Shown: in pieces, positions 1 through 10,904 of the stretch
Layout: each line of letters starts with the position of its first letter
Numbering within the stretch: position 1 is the first letter of the stretch
IMG/VR virus record: IMGVR_UViG_2850756110_000008
Source of the DNA: a virus
Taxonomy: Duplodnaviria > Heunggongvirae > Uroviricota > Caudoviricetes
Length of the DNA stretch: 12,650 bases
Direction: 5' to 3' (one strand)
The notes under the pieces: model-generated
Told to the model about the DNA's origin: nothing
What the model saw: only the letters and a program-made list of their open reading frames with translations
Databases searched by the model: none
Made by a program: the position numbers and the translations under genes

Positions 1-294
1 GTGGCGCACGTCTTCGGTGAACGCACTCTGGCCACACTGGAGCGTCTTCTGAGCCTGCTGTCGGCCTTTGAGGTCGTGGTATGGATGACGGATGGCTGGC
101 CGCTGTATGAATCACGCCTGAAGGGAAAGCTGCACGTTATCAGCAAGCGTTACACTCAGCGCATTGAGCGACATAATCTGAATCTGAGACAACATCTGGC
201 AAGGCTGGGACGGAAGTCACTGTCGTTCTCAAAATCGGTGGAGCTGCATGACAAGGTCATCGGGCATTATCTGAACATAAAACACTATCAGTAA
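1..294 (+). CDS. insB: IS1 transposase InsB, C-terminal fragment (5' end outside window)
   Basis: Translation ...[70 protein letters not shown] is near-identical to the InsB C-terminus from memory. Confidence 0.9.
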
Positions 295-3025: not shown

Positions 3026-3415
3026 TCAGGCTGCTGCACCCGCCGGTTTCTCGTACTTACTGATAGTGATCTCGACCTTCCCTTCCGGGATAACCGGTCC
3101 CCACTCCACCAGCATTCTTTTCACCTGACTGTCGTCTTCCCACACACCCGCGTGGGTCAGGGCGTCAAACAGCGCCTTGTTATAGTTGTTCAGATCGCGG
3201 ATCCGGTTATCCGGAGGAAACAACACGATCTCCACTGAAGCAGGTGCCGACGTTGGTTTTGGCAGACGACGTAACTGCTCAACTATTGCTGCACACGCCG
3301 CGCTCTGGAATTTGCGCCCCGCTGCGCTTATCAGGCTCTTACCAGCAAACGCCCCTTTGTTGGGGTGTCGCCAGTACGTGTTCACGCTGGGCGGAAAAGG
3401 CAGTATTAGCTTCAT
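3026..3415 (-). CDS. rusA: Crossover junction endodeoxyribonuclease RusA (Holliday junction resolvase)
   Basis: Motifs LPFPPSVNTYWR and DLNNYNKALFDALTHAGVWEDDSQV match the RusA family. Start overlaps the upstream stop as ATGA. Confidence 0.85.
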   Translation of the reverse strand: MKLILPFPPSVNTYWRHPNKGAFAGKSLISAAGRKFQSAACAAIVEQLRRLPKPTSAPASVEIVLFPPDNRIRDLNNYNKALFDALTHAGVWEDDSQVKRMLVEWGPVIPEGKVEITISKYEKPAGAAA

Positions 3416-3738
3416 ACTTTCAGGCCCCTCTCATGTAACCAGTGGGCTGCACGCAGCTTGGCGTTTTCCTCACCGGCAAGCAGTGAGCGGATAATCCCGA
3501 CCGCCTCGCTGTCGTCGTCCTTCACCGCGGTATGAAGAGTGATACCACGGGCCACACCACGCTTTATCGTGATGACGCCTTTTTTCTCCAGTGCTCTAAG
3601 ATGCTCCACCGCTGCATTCACTGAACGGTATCCCAGCATGGTTGCCACCTCCTGATTGGTTGGCGGGAAGCCACGTTCTTTCTGGTAAGAAATCAGCATA
3701 TCCAGCACCTGCTGCTGGCATTGAGTTAACGTCGTCAT
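3412..3738 (-). CDS. LexA N-terminal DNA-binding-domain-only protein (no peptidase domain)
   Basis: The 108-aa product aligns by eye with the LexA winged-helix domain (LTxxQQxVxDxI......GxPPTxxExAxxLGxRSxNAAxEHLxALxxKGVIxIxxGxxRGIxL). It lacks the Ala-Gly cleavage site and Ser/Lys peptidase domain. ATGA overlaps with both neighbours. Confidence 0.75.
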   Translation of the reverse strand: MTTLTQCQQQVLDMLISYQKERGFPPTNQEVATMLGYRSVNAAVEHLRALEKKGVITIKRGVARGITLHTAVKDDDSEAVGIIRSLLAGEENAKLRAAHWLHERGLKV

Positions 3739-4388
3739 GCCGCCATCTCCCTGACAAGTTTTTCTGCCTGCTGGCGAACTTGCGCCAGAAAGGCCTCACC
3801 ACATGCCTCAAGTTCATCGCGCCCGATGTAGCTGATTGCCGGTCCCTTCCAGGTCTTGTCGAAAACGGCAATAGCACCAGCGAAGAAAGCACCGGTTGGC
3901 ACCTGCTTCTCGTCTTTCGGGATAAACCAGGCAGGCAGTTCAAAACCAATACGCCCGCGAATAAAAGCAATATGATCCGCATCTTCCGGCCACCACACTT
4001 CGCTGGTGGCAGCTTTGATCAGGAAAACATAGCGCCCGCCCTTATCACGCATGGCACTGGCATGTTTCATGATGTAACGCATGCCGGTGATGTATTGCCC
4101 CTCATGCTGACTGGCGCGGCTGTATGGAGGATTTCCAAAGGCAGCACCTTTAAGCTCCGCAAGACGTTCTGACCAGTCATGCGCCAGCGCGTTGTCTTCC
4201 GCCGTGTAATACGCGGCACATTTGGCGTTATCACCGTCAGTAAACAGATCCAGAACAAACGGGCCAAACAGGGTGTTAATTCCCCAGAAAATGTTGTCCG
4301 GTGTGCGCCACTGATCGCCCACTTCCTTCAGTTCATGGGCTGGTTTGTTTCGCAACTCCACCAGCGCCTGGCAATATTTATTACTCAT
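3735..4388 (-). CDS. Phage Dam-type DNA N6-adenine methyltransferase
   Basis: Catalytic NPPY motif (GNPPYSRA) and overall similarity to phage Dam (PF05869-type) proteins. Start taken at the ATG at 4388, which overlaps the upstream stop (TAATG), rather than the ORF-track start at 4421. Confidence 0.8.
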   Translation of the reverse strand: MSNKYCQALVELRNKPAHELKEVGDQWRTPDNIFWGINTLFGPFVLDLFTDGDNAKCAAYYTAEDNALAHDWSERLAELKGAAFGNPPYSRASQHEGQYITGMRYIMKHASAMRDKGGRYVFLIKAATSEVWWPEDADHIAFIRGRIGFELPAWFIPKDEKQVPTGAFFAGAIAVFDKTWKGPAISYIGRDELEACGEAFLAQVRQQAEKLVREMAA

Positions 4389-4882
4389 TAAGCCCCCACG
4401 TAATTCCCTGACAGATACCACTCATCACCCGATACAGCGCGCTTGCTGCTTTTCCGTAAGCACCGCTCACGACGCGCCAGAAAATTGTTTCGTTCTGGCT
4501 GGGAGTGGCTTTCACGGAATGCCGCCATCCACACCGTTGCAGCACGACGGTATAAGCCCCTGGACTCCAGTTCTTCAGCCTGGCGGGTCAGGCACAAAAT
4601 CACCCGGGGACCGTTAGTGCCGACATAGAAATTGCGCACAGGTCTGGTTTCTCGAACTGATTGTGGTCCCGGTTCCTGCGCTCTCTCAGTCAGGCGCGGG
4701 AAATGTCTGCGTGTATCTCCTTCACAACGGTGAGCCACACGCCCACTCTGACGTAACTTGCTTGCAGACTGCAGAACGCGCTGCCGTGAGTAACCTGCAA
4801 AAGCATCCGCAATGTCTCCGGAAGTACACCCCGGATGGGCTTCAATGAATTTCTGAACGTCATTCAAAAGACTCATGCTCAC
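4388..4882 (-). CDS. PerC/Pch-like regulator with N-terminal winged-helix-like region
   Basis: C-terminal half carries AEELESRGLYRRAATVWMAAF, the same motif as the PerC-like ORF at 10141 (AEELESKGLYRRAAARWMEVM). Start is either GTG at 4882 or ATG at 4876. Translationally coupled to neighbours. Confidence 0.6.
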   Translation of the reverse strand: MSMSLLNDVQKFIEAHPGCTSGDIADAFAGYSRQRVLQSASKLRQSGRVAHRCEGDTRRHFPRLTERAQEPGPQSVRETRPVRNFYVGTNGPRVILCLTRQAEELESRGLYRRAATVWMAAFRESHSQPERNNFLARRERCLRKSSKRAVSGDEWYLSGNYVGA

Positions 4883-5482: not shown

Positions 5483-7021
5483 TTATTCAGTCGGCAGTGC
5501 TACGCGCCAGGGGAGCAGTTCGCCGACCCGGTTTATCGGCCAGTCGGCTATGACGTCAAGGACATAGCGGAGGTAGCTTTCTGGCTCCACTCCGTTCAGT
5601 TTGCACGTCCCGATCAGGCTGTACAGCAGCGCTCCCCGCTCTCCTCCATGATCCGAACCGAAGAACAGGTAGTTTTTGCGGCCCAGACTGACCATCCGCA
5701 ACGCATTTTCAGCGATGTTATTGTCCGCCTCAGCCCAGCCATCATCTGCATAGTACGTCAGCGCCGGCCACTGGTTCAGGGCGTATGCGAACGCTTTCGC
5801 CAGTTCTGAGTGTCGCGACAGGGTTTTCATCTTTTCACGCAGCCAGCTTTCCAGGGATTTCAGCAGCGGTTTCGTTTTCAACTGACGTTCGGCAAGGCGC
5901 TGCTCCGCCGTCATTCCCCTTATCTCTGCCTCGATGGCGTACAGTTCGCCGATCCGTTTCAGCGCTTCCTCCGTCAGGGCTGACGGGGTGCGAACGTGCA
6001 CATCGTGGATTTTACGGCGGGCGTGAGCCCAACAGGCGGCTTCCGTTATCCGGCCATCCCGGTACAGCTCGTTGAACCCGGCGTATGCATCCGCCTGCAG
6101 TACACCACTGAACCCCGCAAGATGGGTCTGCGGATGGATGCCTTTTCTGTCCGGGCTGTAAGCGAACCACACCGCCGGCGCCAGCGTTGACCCGGCGTTA
6201 CGGTCGTCACGAACGTAGGTCCATAACCGCCCGGTCTTCGTTTTCTTATTGCCTGGCAACAGCACCGGGACAGGCGTGTCATCAGCATGGAGCTTACCGT
6301 CAGTCAGCACATAGTCCTGAAGCGCTTCTTCCAGCGGTGACAGTAGCCGGCAGCATGCATCCACCCAGCCCGACAGCAGTGAACGACTCAGCTCCACGCC
6401 CTGGCGGCCGTACATTTCAGACTGGCGGTACAGCGGGGTGTGCTCTGCATACTTTGAGATCAGCACGCGGGCCAGCAGCCCCGGTCCTGCGATACCCCGC
6501 TCGATGGGCCGTGAAGGCGCGGGGGCCTGCACGATGGCATCGCACTGAGTACAGGCATGCTTTTCACGTACAGTCCGGATAACCCGGAAGACGCTGCGCA
6601 TCAACTCCAGCTGTTCGGCGGCATCCTCACCCGGATAGCTCAGTGAGCCTCCACATTCCGGGCAGCATGACGCTGCCGGCAGCAGCCGTTTTTCATCGCG
6701 GGGGAGTGATTCGGGGAACGGTTTGCGGGTGCGGGTTTGACGCAGCGGGCGCTGCACGGCCGGGTCGTCAACCCGACCGGTAAGGGTATCACTTTCTTTC
6801 TGAAGTGCCTTCAGGTCAGCTTCCATCTGTGCGATACGACGGGAGACTTTTTCGGAGCGGCTGCCGAAGTTCATCCGGCGCAGCTTATCCAGCTGTGCCT
6901 GCAGATGGTCTATTTCGCGTTCACGCTCGTTCAGCTTTTCCAGCAGGGCACGGTTCAGCGCCTCCTGTTCGGCAAGGAGACGTTTCAGTGCATTGATATC
7001 GTCAGGAAGTGAGCTGCTCAT
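5483..7021 (-). CDS. IS66-family transposase (TnpC/orf3)
   Basis: 512 aa with N-terminal coiled-coil/leucine zipper, CxxC...CxxC zinc finger (CPECGG...CTQC) and conserved LHADDTPV and TGRLWTY motifs. Confidence 0.9.
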
Positions 7022-7069
7022 ACCGGGTATATTACCAGGCTCATTCAGCGTCGACCAGGATAAAGAGGC

Positions 7070-7417
7070 TTACAACATAGTCAGGGACGTAAGCAGTCTT
7101 TTAGGCTGCCGCCAGTCGATACCTTCAAGGAGCATCGCCAGCTGTGCCGGTGTGAGGAACACTTTGCCATCCCGGGCTGACGGCCAGGCGAAGCGGCCGC
7201 GCTCCAGCCGTTTGGTCAGCAGACACAGTCCATCGCCGGTAGACCAGAGGAGCTTTACCTGACTGCCATTACGCCCACGGAAGATAAAAACGTGACCTGA
7301 CATCGGATCGTCTTTCAGCGTCGTCTGCACCTTTGCCGCCAGGCCGTTGAAGCCATTTCTCATATCGGTGATACCGGCAACCAGCCAAATTTTGGTCCCG
7401 GAAGGTAACGGGATCAT
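7070..7417 (-). CDS. IS66 Orf2 (TnpB) accessory protein
   Basis: 115-aa protein (…LVAGITDMRNGFNGLAAKVQ…LWSTGDGLCLLTKRLERGRF…) typical of the IS66 orf2 family. ATGA overlap with orf1. Confidence 0.85.
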   Translation of the reverse strand: MIPLPSGTKIWLVAGITDMRNGFNGLAAKVQTTLKDDPMSGHVFIFRGRNGSQVKLLWSTGDGLCLLTKRLERGRFAWPSARDGKVFLTPAQLAMLLEGIDWRQPKRLLTSLTML

Positions 7418-7794
7418 CGCTTCAGTTCCTGTATCAGCAGAGTCAGGAGCTTTTCGCTGACATTGCCATTGAAGCGGAGCGTCCCGTGCCGGAACGTTAC
7501 CTCACAGCTGATACTGAGGGTTTCCGGATCCTCTGCGAGCGATTCTGGCTGTTCGGCAGCTGCATCGAGAGTCACAGGAAGTAGCTGGGGGCTCTCTGAA
7601 GAAGGTAATAGCAGCTTTCCCTCGCGCCATTGTTGTCGCCATTTGAACAACAGATTGGCGTTAATGCCATTTTCAAGAGCAAGTTTTGAGATGGATATCC
7701 CGGGTTCACAGGAGGCAGCAACGAGCTGCTGTTTAAATTCGGGAGGATAATTAGGGCAGCCTTTTCGCCTGCCGGGATTCACATTTTTCTGCAT
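7414..7794 (-). CDS. IS66 Orf1 (TnpA) accessory protein
   Basis: Helix-turn-helix-like small protein in the first position of the IS66 operon. ATG at 7794 (MQKNVNPGRRK…) preferred; the ORF-track start at 7815 is a GTG. Confidence 0.8.
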   Translation of the reverse strand: MQKNVNPGRRKGCPNYPPEFKQQLVAASCEPGISISKLALENGINANLLFKWRQQWREGKLLLPSSESPQLLPVTLDAAAEQPESLAEDPETLSISCEVTFRHGTLRFNGNVSEKLLTLLIQELKR

Positions 7795-7946
7795 ATCTGA
7801 CACTTTGGTTCCCACTACTTATTTGGTGGACACCACTTTGTCTAATTCGTCAGATTCTGACCAGACGGTTCAGGCTGTACGCTGATATGACTTTCCGTGT
7901 CAAACCGGAATCTCTAATTTTGACGATTTTCTTTTTAGGTTTAATT

Positions 7947-8129
7947 CCCTGAGGGCGACGTAGCAGTAAATCCGACGGTGAATCACGCTGATATTCGCGG
8001 GTTGGATACCGCATTACAGAGGTCCGTCATATGAGCCTGCCACTTTCTTACGTCGCGAATCAGCTTTGTTCCGCCGTCGCCAAGCGCTAACGTGGGTTAC
8101 TCTTGTACCGGGCTACGTCGCCTTCAGGG
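7947..8129. ncRNA. Candidate IS110-family bridge-RNA-like structured noncoding element (strand undetermined)
   Basis: An 18-bp inverted repeat (7947-7964 CCCTGAGGGCGACGTAGC; 8112-8129 GCTACGTCGCCTTCAGGG, one G/U-compatible mismatch) encloses 147 nt. Inside, ACGCTGATAT (7985-7994) is identical to the 10 nt spanning the IS66-terminus/IS110-end junction (7879-7888). Confidence 0.3.
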
Positions 8130-8148
8130 AACTGGTTATTCTCATTTT

Positions 8149-9276
8149 TTATTTGTGACATTGTGGTTGTTGTGCGACAGACATTGCTATTCGGCCCATA
8201 TCCCAGATAAAACCCGCCAGCTCACGTGCAACAGCAACAATTGTAATATTGACATTCTTTCCTTTGGCCTGAAGTTTTCGATACCTCTTACAGAGCCTGA
8301 GTTGAGCATCCCATGCTCTGTCAATGACGGGGCGGGGTAAATTTTCCTGCCTTTTTTGTATTGCCGGACTGATGCGTGCCGGATGACGGTAACTCCACGC
8401 TGCCTCGACCAATAGCTTTCTGGCATAGCTGTTTCCGGCTTTGGTAATGCTGCCCTGATGTCTGCTTCCACCCGATGAATATTCTGATGGCGTGATACCA
8501 AACCATGACATCAGTTGTCGTGGATGTTCAAAACGGGTCAGATCACCCAGTTCAGAAATTAATCCAACCGCAGTAATAAACTGAATCCCTCGCATGGCTT
8601 GCAGCGCCTCTACTACCGGATACAGCCTCCATTCGGTAACGGCCTCCTTCAGGGCGGATTCCAGCCGTTCACATTGTGCCTGCCGGTCTTCTATTGTACG
8701 ACGGTGTTCGTCAAAAGCTAATTGTCGCCAGGGACTTTCGAATGAGTATTTGCTGAGCCAGCGTCGGTGTGCAGGGCCCCAATCTGCTCGCCCGACATAA
8801 TGGACCCCATGAACCAGAAGAAACGATTTCAGACGTTGCCTTGCATGCCGTAAATCATCGCGGGCAGATGCCCATGCCCGGGCCAAATCCCGGAATGCCT
8901 CATCTTCAATGCCGGGTACGTAGACAGCAGAAAGATCTCCTGCACGCAGTGAACGCACAAGTCTGATGGCATCACGGCGATCGGTTTTAACCCGCTCCCC
9001 CGGTTTTTTCGGGATAAGTGAGGGGGCGCAGACCATGCAGTCAAAACCGGATTTCACCAGCCGACGATAAAGTCCATAACCACAGGGCCCCGCTTCATAA
9101 ACGATACTGACCTGCGATGACTTTGACCTGAGACGTTTACAAAGATTCTGAATATCAGTAGGTGATGTGCCAATTTTACCCATCAGTTCAACAGGTTCTG
9201 AATTGATAGCATAAGCGACAGTAATCGATTCTTTGTGAACATCTAACCCGACGTACAATGTGTTATTGTTGTTCAT
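8149..9276 (-). CDS. IS110-family transposase / DEDD recombinase
   Basis: 375 aa from the ATG at 9276, with GGAGG 7 nt upstream. N-terminal RuvC-like DEDD motifs (YVGLDVHK, IVYEAG, KTDRRDA) and C-terminal Tnp domain with conserved Ser (GITPSEYSSGGS). The ORF track extends the start to 9324, which lacks an RBS. Confidence 0.85.
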   Translation of the reverse strand: MNNNNTLYVGLDVHKESITVAYAINSEPVELMGKIGTSPTDIQNLCKRLRSKSSQVSIVYEAGPCGYGLYRRLVKSGFDCMVCAPSLIPKKPGERVKTDRRDAIRLVRSLRAGDLSAVYVPGIEDEAFRDLARAWASARDDLRHARQRLKSFLLVHGVHYVGRADWGPAHRRWLSKYSFESPWRQLAFDEHRRTIEDRQAQCERLESALKEAVTEWRLYPVVEALQAMRGIQFITAVGLISELGDLTRFEHPRQLMSWFGITPSEYSSGGSRHQGSITKAGNSYARKLLVEAAWSYRHPARISPAIQKRQENLPRPVIDRAWDAQLRLCKRYRKLQAKGKNVNITIVAVARELAGFIWDMGRIAMSVAQQPQCHK

Positions 9277-9426
9277 GCTGGCCTCCGTGGTGGAAATACC
9301 GGGGGGTAGCAACAGCTCACCCATGCGGCTCTGACAACGATGTTAACCCGCGTTAAATATCCCACGTTGGCCAGCATCTGTCTCACGGAAAGTCATACTG
9401 CCTTACTTTCCAATGGGCACTCATGT

Positions 9427-9882
9427 TTATACGCTGACCTTACAATCAATCACCGCTTTTAAATTTTCAGCATTGCTTCCCTGACGCTTCCACGCGCTGT
9501 AAATATCTTTATCCCACGCTTTACCAGCTTTTGTTTGATAGCCTGCTTCATTGATCCGTTCAGCTATCACACGCCCATTATCAAATCCCTGTTGGATGGT
9601 ATCGGCAATGATCTTTATAACTGCCGTTTCGTTATATGGCTTTGGTGGGATGTTCGGCTTTCCGGCAATAAGCGACGCAGCGGCTTTTTCCATGCGCTCC
9701 ACCAGCCCAAGCATTCGTGAATCAATAGACTTTTCCGGCTGTCCCAGCTTCATGCGAATCGCATCAACAAGCCAGGAGGTTTTATCCCCTCCAGAAGCGA
9801 GAACAGACCGATTAAACTCATCCTGCAATTCAGATGGGATGCGGAACGCGATCAGATTAGATTTGCTCATTGCAAAGACCAT
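9427..9882 (-). CDS. Hypothetical protein, possibly ribbon-helix-helix (Arc-like) DNA-binding at the N-terminus
   Basis: 151-aa protein-like ORF divergent from the PerC-like gene. N-terminus NLIAFRIPSELQDEFNRSVLASGGDKTSWLVDAIRMKL resembles RHH folds. A palindromic operator-like site lies 20-50 bp upstream. Stop is 30 bp from the IS110 end, so the C-terminus may be altered. Confidence 0.5.
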   Translation of the reverse strand: MVFAMSKSNLIAFRIPSELQDEFNRSVLASGGDKTSWLVDAIRMKLGQPEKSIDSRMLGLVERMEKAAASLIAGKPNIPPKPYNETAVIKIIADTIQQGFDNGRVIAERINEAGYQTKAGKAWDKDIYSAWKRQGSNAENLKAVIDCKVSV

Positions 9883-9899
9883 ATCAGTGAGTAATATCC

Positions 9900-9931
9900 A
9901 TACAGTATACCACTGTATAACACTGTTATAC
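9900..9931. promoter_or_regulatory. Overlapping palindromic operator-like sites upstream of the 151-aa gene
   Basis: ATACAGT-N5-ACTGTAT (9900-9918) and a perfect 17-bp palindrome GTATAACA-C-TGTTATAC (9915-9931). A minus-strand TATACT -10-like hexamer overlaps. Confidence 0.4.
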
Positions 9932-9983
9932 GCTCAAATATCAGCCAGAAAATAACGGACCAATCACAAAGCTATCGCTGTGT

Positions 9984-10104
9984 TGTTGGTTCAGAGCTGG
10001 GCTGTGTTGGTTCAAAATGAGTTGATGTTGGTTCAATATTTTAGAAAAACATAATAAAAACAACGATCTTTACAAATTGAACCAACTGAACCAACTGAAC
10101 CAAC
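9984..10104. repeat. Iteron-like array: six copies of GTTGGTTCA (3 direct at 21-bp spacing, 42-bp AT-rich spacer, 3 inverted in 9-bp tandem)
   Basis: TGTTGGTTCA at 9984-9993, 10005-10014 and 10026-10035. AT-rich 10036-10077. TGAACCAAC at 10078-10086, 10087-10095 and 10096-10104. Confidence 0.7.
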
Positions 10105-10135
10105 ACCTTTTTGCTTATCTATATAATCTGAGAGG
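10096..10135 (+). promoter_or_regulatory. Putative promoter and RBS of the PerC-like gene, overlapped by the inverted repeats
   Basis: Perfect TATAAT at 10122-10127 and GAGAGG at 10130-10135 before the ATG at 10141. The -35 region coincides with the TGAACCAAC repeats. Confidence 0.3.
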
Positions 10136-10140
10136 CAGAA

Positions 10141-10422
10141 ATGATAAGGGACAGGAAAGCTGAAGAGCTGGAGTCAAAAGGGCTATACCGGAGAGCTGCC
10201 GCACGATGGATGGAAGTCATGCTGTTATGCACCGAGGACGATGATCGGGAATGGATAAAGCGCCGCCGTGAAACGTGTCTGGAGAACGTGAAGCGCCCGC
10301 CCGTGAAGGTTGAGGAATTTGGCGACCTGCATAAAGCTGTTACCGAAACGCAACACCGCATGGGGATAGCGCAACCGAACGGTAACGCCTTCCGGTTAAA
10401 TGGCGGCAAGAGGCAAAGGTAG
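10141..10422 (+). CDS. PerC family transcriptional activator-like protein
   Basis: 93 aa with the N-terminal motif RDRKAEELESKGLYRRAAARWMEV characteristic of PerC/Pch proteins as I recall them. Good RBS. Confidence 0.7.
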   Translation: MIRDRKAEELESKGLYRRAAARWMEVMLLCTEDDDREWIKRRRETCLENVKRPPVKVEEFGDLHKAVTETQHRMGIAQPNGNAFRLNGGKRQR

Positions 10423-10718: not shown

Positions 10719-10904
10719 ATGACACCACGCGAAATAGCCTTATTGACCATCGCCAAACTTGAGCACGGAGGCCACCAGCTTACACAGGCAGATCAACGGG
10801 AGATAGAACGATCAGTTAATGCCGATATAGCCCGGCGCGACAGGTTCCGCGAAATGATGCGAGCACCTGCCTACCAGTGGAAGAAGCCAGCGCCGCGCAG
10901 GTAG
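10719..10904 (+). CDS. Hypothetical small protein (61 aa)
   Basis: GAGGG 8 nt upstream of ATG; charged helical-looking product; no family recognised. Confidence 0.4.
   Translation: MTPREIALLTIAKLEHGGHQLTQADQREIERSVNADIARRDRFREMMRAPAYQWKKPAPRR

Follow-up and report, generated by a model that had tools for sequence, protein, structure and literature searches.

The window analyzed here, a stretch of 12,650 nucleotides from the IMG/VR virus record IMGVR_UViG_2850756110_000008, carries a minus-strand gene at 9427-9870, placed by the PGAP call and by alignment of homologs, that encodes a protein of 147 amino acids. Between its start and that of a divergent gene for a PerC protein (start at 10141) lie two overlapping inverted repeats, which are the subject of this work, and, between these repeats and perC, a cluster of iterons at 9984-10105. 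The cluster consists of three direct copies of GAACCAAC spaced by 21 bp (9984-10035) and three inverted copies spaced by 9 bp (10077-10105), separated by a spacer that is 82% AT and contains GATC. Two sets of iterons around an AT-rich stretch is the layout described for the replication origins of PICIs (PMC6092414). The cluster is conserved in E. coli, Cedecea, Pantoea, Rosenbergiella, Erwinia and Mixta, with some loci containing two or three clusters.

The gene belongs to the remnant of a PICI-like phage satellite and stands directly beside this origin-like cluster. It is also found in NZ_CP148430.1, a 12,152-bp circular E. coli record that encodes int, an AntA/B (Bro-type) protein, an Icd-like protein, a TOPRIM-DUF927 primase, PerC and the regulator, the last being the only minus-strand gene of the record. 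The features of a Gram-negative PICI are thereby present (an integrase, a primase or replicase, and an origin with two iteron sets around an AT-rich stretch), the gene order fits the zone organization of these elements (PMC10111431, PMC6092414), and among the annotated hypothetical ORFs of the record that were scanned, none matched Phage_AlpA. Although labeled a plasmid, NZ_CP148430.1 looks like an excised PICI-like element, and its positions 8324-8597 correspond to 9850-10145 of the window. Distant relatives of the regulator are likewise encoded near DUF927, D5_N/DUF5906 or Replicase genes. Two further loci are worth describing for their arrangement. In E. coli SWHEFF_68 (L001, 2909-7567), the TOPRIM-DUF927 primase is separated from the regulator by P22-like DNA-ejection/injection genes, which fits the 'late gene capture' zone of PICIs (PMC10111431). 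In Pantoea coffeiphila (L010, 6001-8137), the iterons, the operator, the regulator and a convergent gene for a 62-aa protein, homologous to window 10719-10904, are tandemly duplicated, and the duplication adjoins a gene for a 514-aa serine recombinase.

Only a remnant of the module is left in the window, separated on its left from lambdoid prophage genes by ISSso6-like and IS66 elements. These two insertions, an ISSso6-like element of the IS110 family at 7990-9409 and an IS66-family element with three ORFs at 5483-7815, sit back to back. The prophage genes to their left are ones that we take to be Q-like, DUF968-like, KilA-N-like, RusA-like and methyltransferase-like, and a fragment of IS1 occupies the left end of the window (1-294). 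The window also encodes, both on the minus strand, a 108-aa protein made up of a LexA DNA-binding domain alone (3412-3738; PF01726, E = 3e-19) and, in its lambdoid part, a second PerC-domain protein of 164 aa (4388-4882).

The regulator gene had been described in the initial annotation as a 151-aa reading frame, ending 30 bp from the IS110 element and possibly damaged by it. The minus-strand ORF does extend over 9427-9882, with an upstream in-frame ATG at 9882 that gives 151 aa. However, the orthologs all start with MSKS, the sequence here reads MSKSN from the ATG at 9870, and PGAP annotates the 147-aa form, so that this ATG is the conserved start codon and 147 aa the more likely length. Homology with IS-free alleles restarts at 9406 and ISSso6-like IS110 copies match up to 9409-9410, which places the end of the element at 9405-9409, or 17-21 bp past the stop codon. 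The coding sequence is therefore complete, and the ORF is full length when compared with 365 homologs. What the insertions did remove is whatever stood downstream of the gene.

The protein is a member of a family of at least 365 proteins of 141-147 aa from Enterobacterales, with 61-100% identity among the aligned members, and of 5,426 complete E. coli genomes, 95 carry the 1.1-kb module almost in full. No homolog was found in 50,697 phage records, at the DNA or the protein level, and the idea that the gene sits at the 'Mnt position' of the P22 immI region was for this reason dropped as a claim of homology. Pfam (at E values up to 10), NCBIfam and PADLOC returned nothing useful for the 147-aa protein; the sole PHROG match was to phrog_30270, of unknown function (E = 8e-4). 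Literature searches on the accessions, the iteron and the operator turned up nothing of relevance, and both the family and its constant position next to the origins of satellites are undescribed.

Both inverted repeats reported in the initial annotation are present, each with arms that the repeat finder scores as 100% complementary. The plus strand at 9900-9931 reads ATACAGTATACCACTGTATAACACTGTTATAC. The proposed operator core within it is a perfect 17-bp palindrome, GTATAACACTGTTATAC, at 9915-9931, with arms at 9915-9922 and 9924-9931 (8+1+8), and can be divided into two GT-N3-AC units 10 bp apart. The other dyad, the first one of the initial annotation, ATACAGT-N5-ACTGTAT at 9900-9918 (arms 9900-9906 and 9912-9918; 7-N5-7), combines the end of one of these units with sequence just downstream of the -10 element described below, on which it is centered. 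Read on the gene strand, the region becomes GC-GTATAACAGT-GTTATACAGT-GGTATACTGT-ATGG, that is, three units in 10-bp phase. We call the promoter-distal unit (GTATAAC, 9925-9931, minus strand) O1 and the promoter-proximal one (GTTATAC, 9915-9921, minus strand) O2; since O1 and O2 are mirror images of each other, together they produce the 17-bp palindrome of the E. coli allele.

By themselves the dyads are only moderately non-random, and it is the comparative data that carry the weight. In first-order Markov simulations of the 270-bp intergenic region, a perfect inverted repeat with 8-bp arms and a loop of at most 6 arose with P ~0.04, and such a repeat accompanied by a second dyad with 7-bp arms within 30 bp with P ~7e-4. 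Four inverted repeats with 8-bp arms occur in the whole window, against 1.4 expected. The 17-mer itself has no second match in the window at up to three mismatches (0.01 expected), and a search for extra operator copies, as a regulon would have, came back empty for the window, the 12-kb circular element and the E. coli SWHEFF_68 locus. Elsewhere, the 106-kb record IMGVR_UViG_3300009788_000091 (L074, L083, L085) contains six exact copies of GTATAACAnTGTTATAC, with no regulator homolog in the stretches examined around them, and in another contig (L064, 5294-5344) an unrelated 65-aa ORF whose N-terminus is RHH-like (KKTVTFNLSEE) stands 35 bp from the GTATAACAnTGTTATAC 17-mer.

The initial annotation had placed the site where the promoter of the divergent gene must be, and the position of the units agrees with this: they end 5 nt before a conserved extended -10 element. 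In the window this element, TGGTATACT, would occupy 9904-9912 on the minus strand, with its hexamer running from 9909 to 9904 and its TG at 9912-9911, and it is at the same time a degenerate third member of the 10-bp series, GGTATAC. The orthologs have TGnTAAAAT, TGnTATACT or TGATATAAT at the same place. No acceptable match to a -35 box was found at the promoter, and a scan for consensus sigma-70 promoters with two hexamers found none, so the promoter call rests on the conserved extended -10. From geometry alone, transcription would start at the A at 9897 (minus strand), 7 nt after the -10, leaving a leader of 27 nt to the ATG at 9870. Relative to this putative start O1 would lie at about -34 to -28 and O2 at about -24 to -18, and the two units together would fill -34 to -18, the place of the -35 box and the spacer. 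It is worth mentioning that the leader (9871-9894) contains CACTGATATGG, which is conserved in class 1 loci (defined below) and looks like a further extended -10 (TGATATGGT), 7 nt upstream of the ATG at 9870; a leaderless transcript from this motif is conceivable. The apparent start codon of the 151-aa reading, at 9882, falls inside the same motif.

The comparison of orthologous loci drew on 30 loci from one GTDB species-genome scan, supplemented by contig look-ups and by IMG/VR. Orthologs with an intact upstream region (about 40 loci) always have two such units, or sometimes three, phased by 10 bp. Among the 43 distinct upstream sequences with a site, O2 without exception ends exactly 5 nt before TGnTAnnnT. 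The number of units varies by exact steps of 10 bp. Tatumella terrea and one Pantoea contig (L008, L035) have three, and NZ_CP148430.1 (L036) has one 10-bp unit fewer than the window, with the 17-bp palindrome kept and TGTTATACT recreated as the -10 (TGnTATACT). The first dyad fares differently. ATACAGT-N5-ACTGTAT is kept only in loci from Escherichia, Klebsiella, Pluralibacter and Serratia fonticola; it is broken in Buttiauxella (L014), in Morganella (L028), in a Proteus-like group from IMG/VR and in all class 2 loci, and a natural 10-bp deletion allele, that of pZ1323CEC0013_1-4, removes it. Thus both of the overlapping dyads exist, but the site is better read as 10-bp-phased units beside an extended -10, of which only the 17-mer is conserved across genera.

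These observations bear on one alternative, that the dyads have no protein-binding role and are a by-product of an AT-rich promoter and of 10-bp slippage repeats, or else form an RNA or DNA hairpin. A single repeat with 8-bp arms is, after all, not very rare in 270 bp of AT-rich DNA, as the simulations indicate, the units overlap promoter elements, and a 10-bp slippage allele does exist. However, the register and the sequence of the site are kept across genera despite flanks that cannot be aligned from one genus to another, and the site switches together with the adjacent protein, as described below. As to a hairpin, the predicted RNA folds are weak and no better than those of shuffled sequences (-5.9 and -8.5 kcal/mol; z = -1.4 and -0.5), no terminator-like site was found, and the site lies upstream of the putative transcription start. 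An RNA hairpin or terminator was rejected on these grounds, Rfam had no match in the window, and we consider an origin of the dyads without protein binding very improbable.

The sequence of the units falls into two classes. Class 1 sites, GTATAAC-N3-GTTATAC, are found in Escherichia, Klebsiella, Raoultella, Pluralibacter, Serratia, Morganella and one Buttiauxella, and class 2 sites, GTCTTAC-N3-GTCTTAC, in Pantoea, Erwinia, Tatumella, Rosenbergiella, Mixta, Cedecea and others. Since the latter are direct repeats, palindromic symmetry is not the conserved property. The class of the operator is matched, with no exceptions, by the class of a short N-terminal strand of the protein, which reads x-L-[VI]-A-F-R with class 1 sites and x-S-V-T-F-R with class 2 sites. 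The two differ at protein positions 6 and 8 (L/A or S/T), and it is with these positions that the inner 3 bp of the units co-vary, while R10 of the protein does not vary, nor does the outer GT/AC of the units. Protein and upstream DNA are physically linked, and part of this co-variation is therefore shared ancestry. The protein of Buttiauxella izardii is, outside the strand, closest (84%) to the class 2 protein of B. noackiae and yet carries the class 1 strand together with the class 1 operator, so the strand and operator classes do not merely reflect one deep split; independent co-switch events that can be pointed to number only two or three.

The strand that co-varies with the operator belongs to a protein that had been called ribbon-helix-helix (RHH)-like from its sequence, with a profile search for an RHH/Arc/MetJ fold suggested as the check. 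For the protein itself the outcome of such searches was negative. No curated RHH model matched the 147-aa protein, whether from Pfam at E values up to 10 or from NCBIfam, and Pfam Arc (PF03869) matched neither this protein nor any of 28 aligned orthologs. No solved RHH structure was found in the PDB by phmmer with the single protein or by hmmsearch with a profile of the whole protein; Foldseek with the full-length monomer model found nothing in the PDB below E 0.8; and a word-indexed profile search that used the N-terminal alignment recovered nothing beyond truncated copies of this family. Its distant relatives, on the other hand, do match. An exhaustive N-terminal profile search of 1.84 billion representatives identified 72 relatives, and, among 34 of the more distant ones, matches were to RHH_1 (8), NikA-like (3), TacA1 (3), HicB (2), Arc (2), TraY, RHH_3 and VapB, the two Arc matches having E values of about 1e-3. 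Moreover, (S)NLIAFRIPSEL...GGDKTSWLVDAIRMKL follows the motif of Arc and Mnt, and hhalign with a profile of residues 1-48 gave P = 1e-3 for Arc and P = 6e-4 for Mnt, each from a single pairwise comparison. Its F-R-x-P is in register with Arc and Mnt, such that positions 6, 8 and 10 correspond to Q9, N11 and R13 of Arc, which are the base-contacting residues of that repressor. The AF2 model has an N-terminal extended segment followed by helices at 13-25 and 30-41, and the low confidence of the monomer at residues 1-48 is expected for an obligate dimer, for which a monomer is a poor test. Taken together, the transitive profile evidence and the Arc/Mnt register support an N-terminal domain of the RHH type, within a layout of an RHH-like region (residues 1-45), a helix (50-67) and a conserved C-terminal four-helix domain (77-147). 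The protein would work like Arc and Mnt, yet at the gathering threshold it is not a member of PF03869.

Could the site be a real operator that is bound by another protein, such as PerC, the 61-aa protein, a helper-phage regulator or the host LexA, with the 147-aa protein being simply the product of the regulated gene? With its single copy per element, the site could be where a signal from outside is received, and the window does encode, elsewhere, the protein with only a LexA DNA-binding domain. However, the sequence of the site switches with the strand residues of the adjacent protein, also within Buttiauxella. In addition, a relative of about 50% identity with L/A at positions 6 and 8 (P0171, strand S-L-T-A-F-R) has upstream of its gene two copies of a 19-bp palindrome, TGTATAACAnTGTTATACA, at a locus whose neighbors and iterons are quite different, so that the same palindrome is found beside a homolog in another setting. 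The PerC and 61-aa genes are missing from many loci that keep the site, and an SOS box (CTGT-N8-ACAG) is absent from 9883-9960 and its vicinity with one mismatch allowed. A LexA-controlled site was rejected on this count: the range 9850-10150 has no such box with one mismatch allowed, and the six matches elsewhere in the window are at chance level. We therefore regard a different binder as improbable.

The reading that we prefer, with a probability of roughly 75%, is that 9904-9931 is the promoter and the negative autoregulatory operator of the 147-aa RHH protein. Autoregulation had already been proposed in the initial annotation, and the reading of the site as the protein's own operator is now backed by the fixed register to the -10 in about 40 loci, by the co-switch of strand and operator, and by the distribution of exact 17-mer matches in IMG/VR, 24 of 43 of which lie about 45 bp upstream of a homolog. 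We infer that one RHH dimer would bind each unit, inserting its two-stranded sheet into the major groove through L6, A8 and R10. Two dimers would then occupy one face of the DNA, perhaps held together by the helix at 50-67 as in Mnt. A tetramer bound in this way would exclude RNA polymerase from the promoter, resulting in negative autoregulation. In the E. coli clade, where the -10 resembles a third unit, occupancy may extend over the -10 itself. Counted against this reading is the single site per element, which leaves an autoregulated stand-alone gene without an evident purpose; wider roles in the control of the island are possible.

Another reading is that the protein binds the site but that self-repression is not the main outcome, the site serving either as an accessory element of the origin, used for replication licensing or copy control in the manner of CopG or of iteron handcuffing, or as a site of positive autoregulation. 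The operator is about 50 bp from the conserved cluster that resembles a PICI origin, with its two iteron sets around the 82% AT spacer (PMC6092414), and an origin-like neighborhood recurs in the distant relatives with different iterons. Furthermore, a promoter that lacks a -35 box is a setting in which activators often act. But a position at -34 to -18 is inside the footprint of RNA polymerase, an arrangement typical of repressors such as Arc and CopG rather than of class I or class II activators. Moreover, several loci (L002-L005, L014, L028 and the Proteus-like group) keep the site without a GAACCAAC cluster within 330 bp. An origin-associated or activating role is thus unlikely, though less so than binding by another protein.

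A type II toxin-antitoxin system, in which the protein would be the antitoxin, was also considered and was rejected because no conserved partner gene exists; PADLOC gave no hit. The downstream neighbor varies, being an IS element here, a 73-aa ORF 80 bp away in E. coli SWHEFF_68, a convergent Abi_2 gene in Pantoea, and the convergent gene for the 62-aa protein in P. coffeiphila.

Among known systems, the proposed autorepressor most resembles, in different respects, three groups of RHH proteins. Like Arc and Mnt of the P22 immI region (PF03869), it has an N-terminal F-R-x-P-x-E-L strand-helix-helix motif in register, a symmetric site inside the promoter (17-21 bp, with Arc and Mnt binding as two dimers about one helical turn apart), a gene divergent from its neighbors and, as we propose, negative control; and like Mnt, it has a helix after the RHH domain that could serve for tetramerization. 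It is unlike them in its length of 147 aa with an additional, highly conserved C-terminal four-helix domain, in GT-N3-AC half-sites that are unrelated to the Arc and Mnt operators, in the lack of an adjacent antirepressor partner, and in its occurrence in satellite-like islands with no homolog in the sequenced phages searched. CopG (RepA of pMV158) and other RHH_1 autorepressors similarly bind a pseudo-symmetric element over their own promoter beside a replication origin, with several dimers binding cooperatively to one face of the DNA, as proposed here. However, the hhalign comparison with CopG was not significant (P = 0.18), and the gene described here is monocistronic and does not precede a replication gene, the primase being encoded elsewhere and on the other strand. 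Omega of pSM19035, ParG and MetJ-type proteins also recognize short units that are direct or inverted and variable in number (two or three here), with one dimer per 7-8-bp unit; the differences are a unit spacing of 10 bp here compared with 7-8 bp, the absence of a partition ATPase or co-repressor context, and membership that is not detected at the sequence level. As a regulator carried by a PICI-like element, the protein is also comparable to Stl/Rpr of Gram-positive PICIs and to AlpA of Gram-negative ones (PMC6092414). The Stl proteins, in contrast, are HTH repressors whose operators control the whole island, whereas here there is one site at the protein's own promoter, and AlpA is an activator of a different fold.

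The C-terminal domain (residues 73-147, window 9427-9645) is nearly invariant in the family and is modeled by AF2 as four helices with a pLDDT of 92. Pfam matches to it, HTH_62 and Recombinase, were only sub-threshold (23 of 28 members), a PDB search with the C-terminal profile gave nothing, and Foldseek with the C-terminal model found nothing in the PDB below E 0.8. In BFVD there were resemblances to anti-sigma70/AsiA-like proteins (E 0.14-0.33) and to serine recombinases, all of them weak (overall E 0.14-0.7), and this likeness of the models may be taken as a lead, not as a result. Binding of the domain to the GAACCAAC iterons was not supported, as the same domain is retained in Proteus-like and Klebsiella-like loci where no such iterons are close by.

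Autorepression by RHH proteins is textbook knowledge, and the mechanism proposed here would be an ordinary one; the protein family, on the other hand, is unannotated and yet widespread in islands of Enterobacterales. Its two specificity classes, together with the variants in unit number, offer a ready-made test of the rules of RHH recognition, in which L6/A8 with ATA or TAT cores can be contrasted with S6/T8 with CTT cores. For Gram-negative PICIs, no global repressor is known (PMC6092414), and the consistent place of the protein by PICI-like origins makes it a concrete candidate. In the most far-reaching version, which we would call a long shot, this undescribed two-domain family (RHH plus four-helix) would, from its place by the origin, act as the repressor or licensing factor so far missing from Gram-negative PICI-like satellites, setting its own level by way of the operator and using its C-terminal domain to sense a helper or host factor or to contact sigma-70, the last idea being suggested by the weak AsiA-like resemblance. 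If true, replication or induction of these islands would be coupled to infection by the helper.
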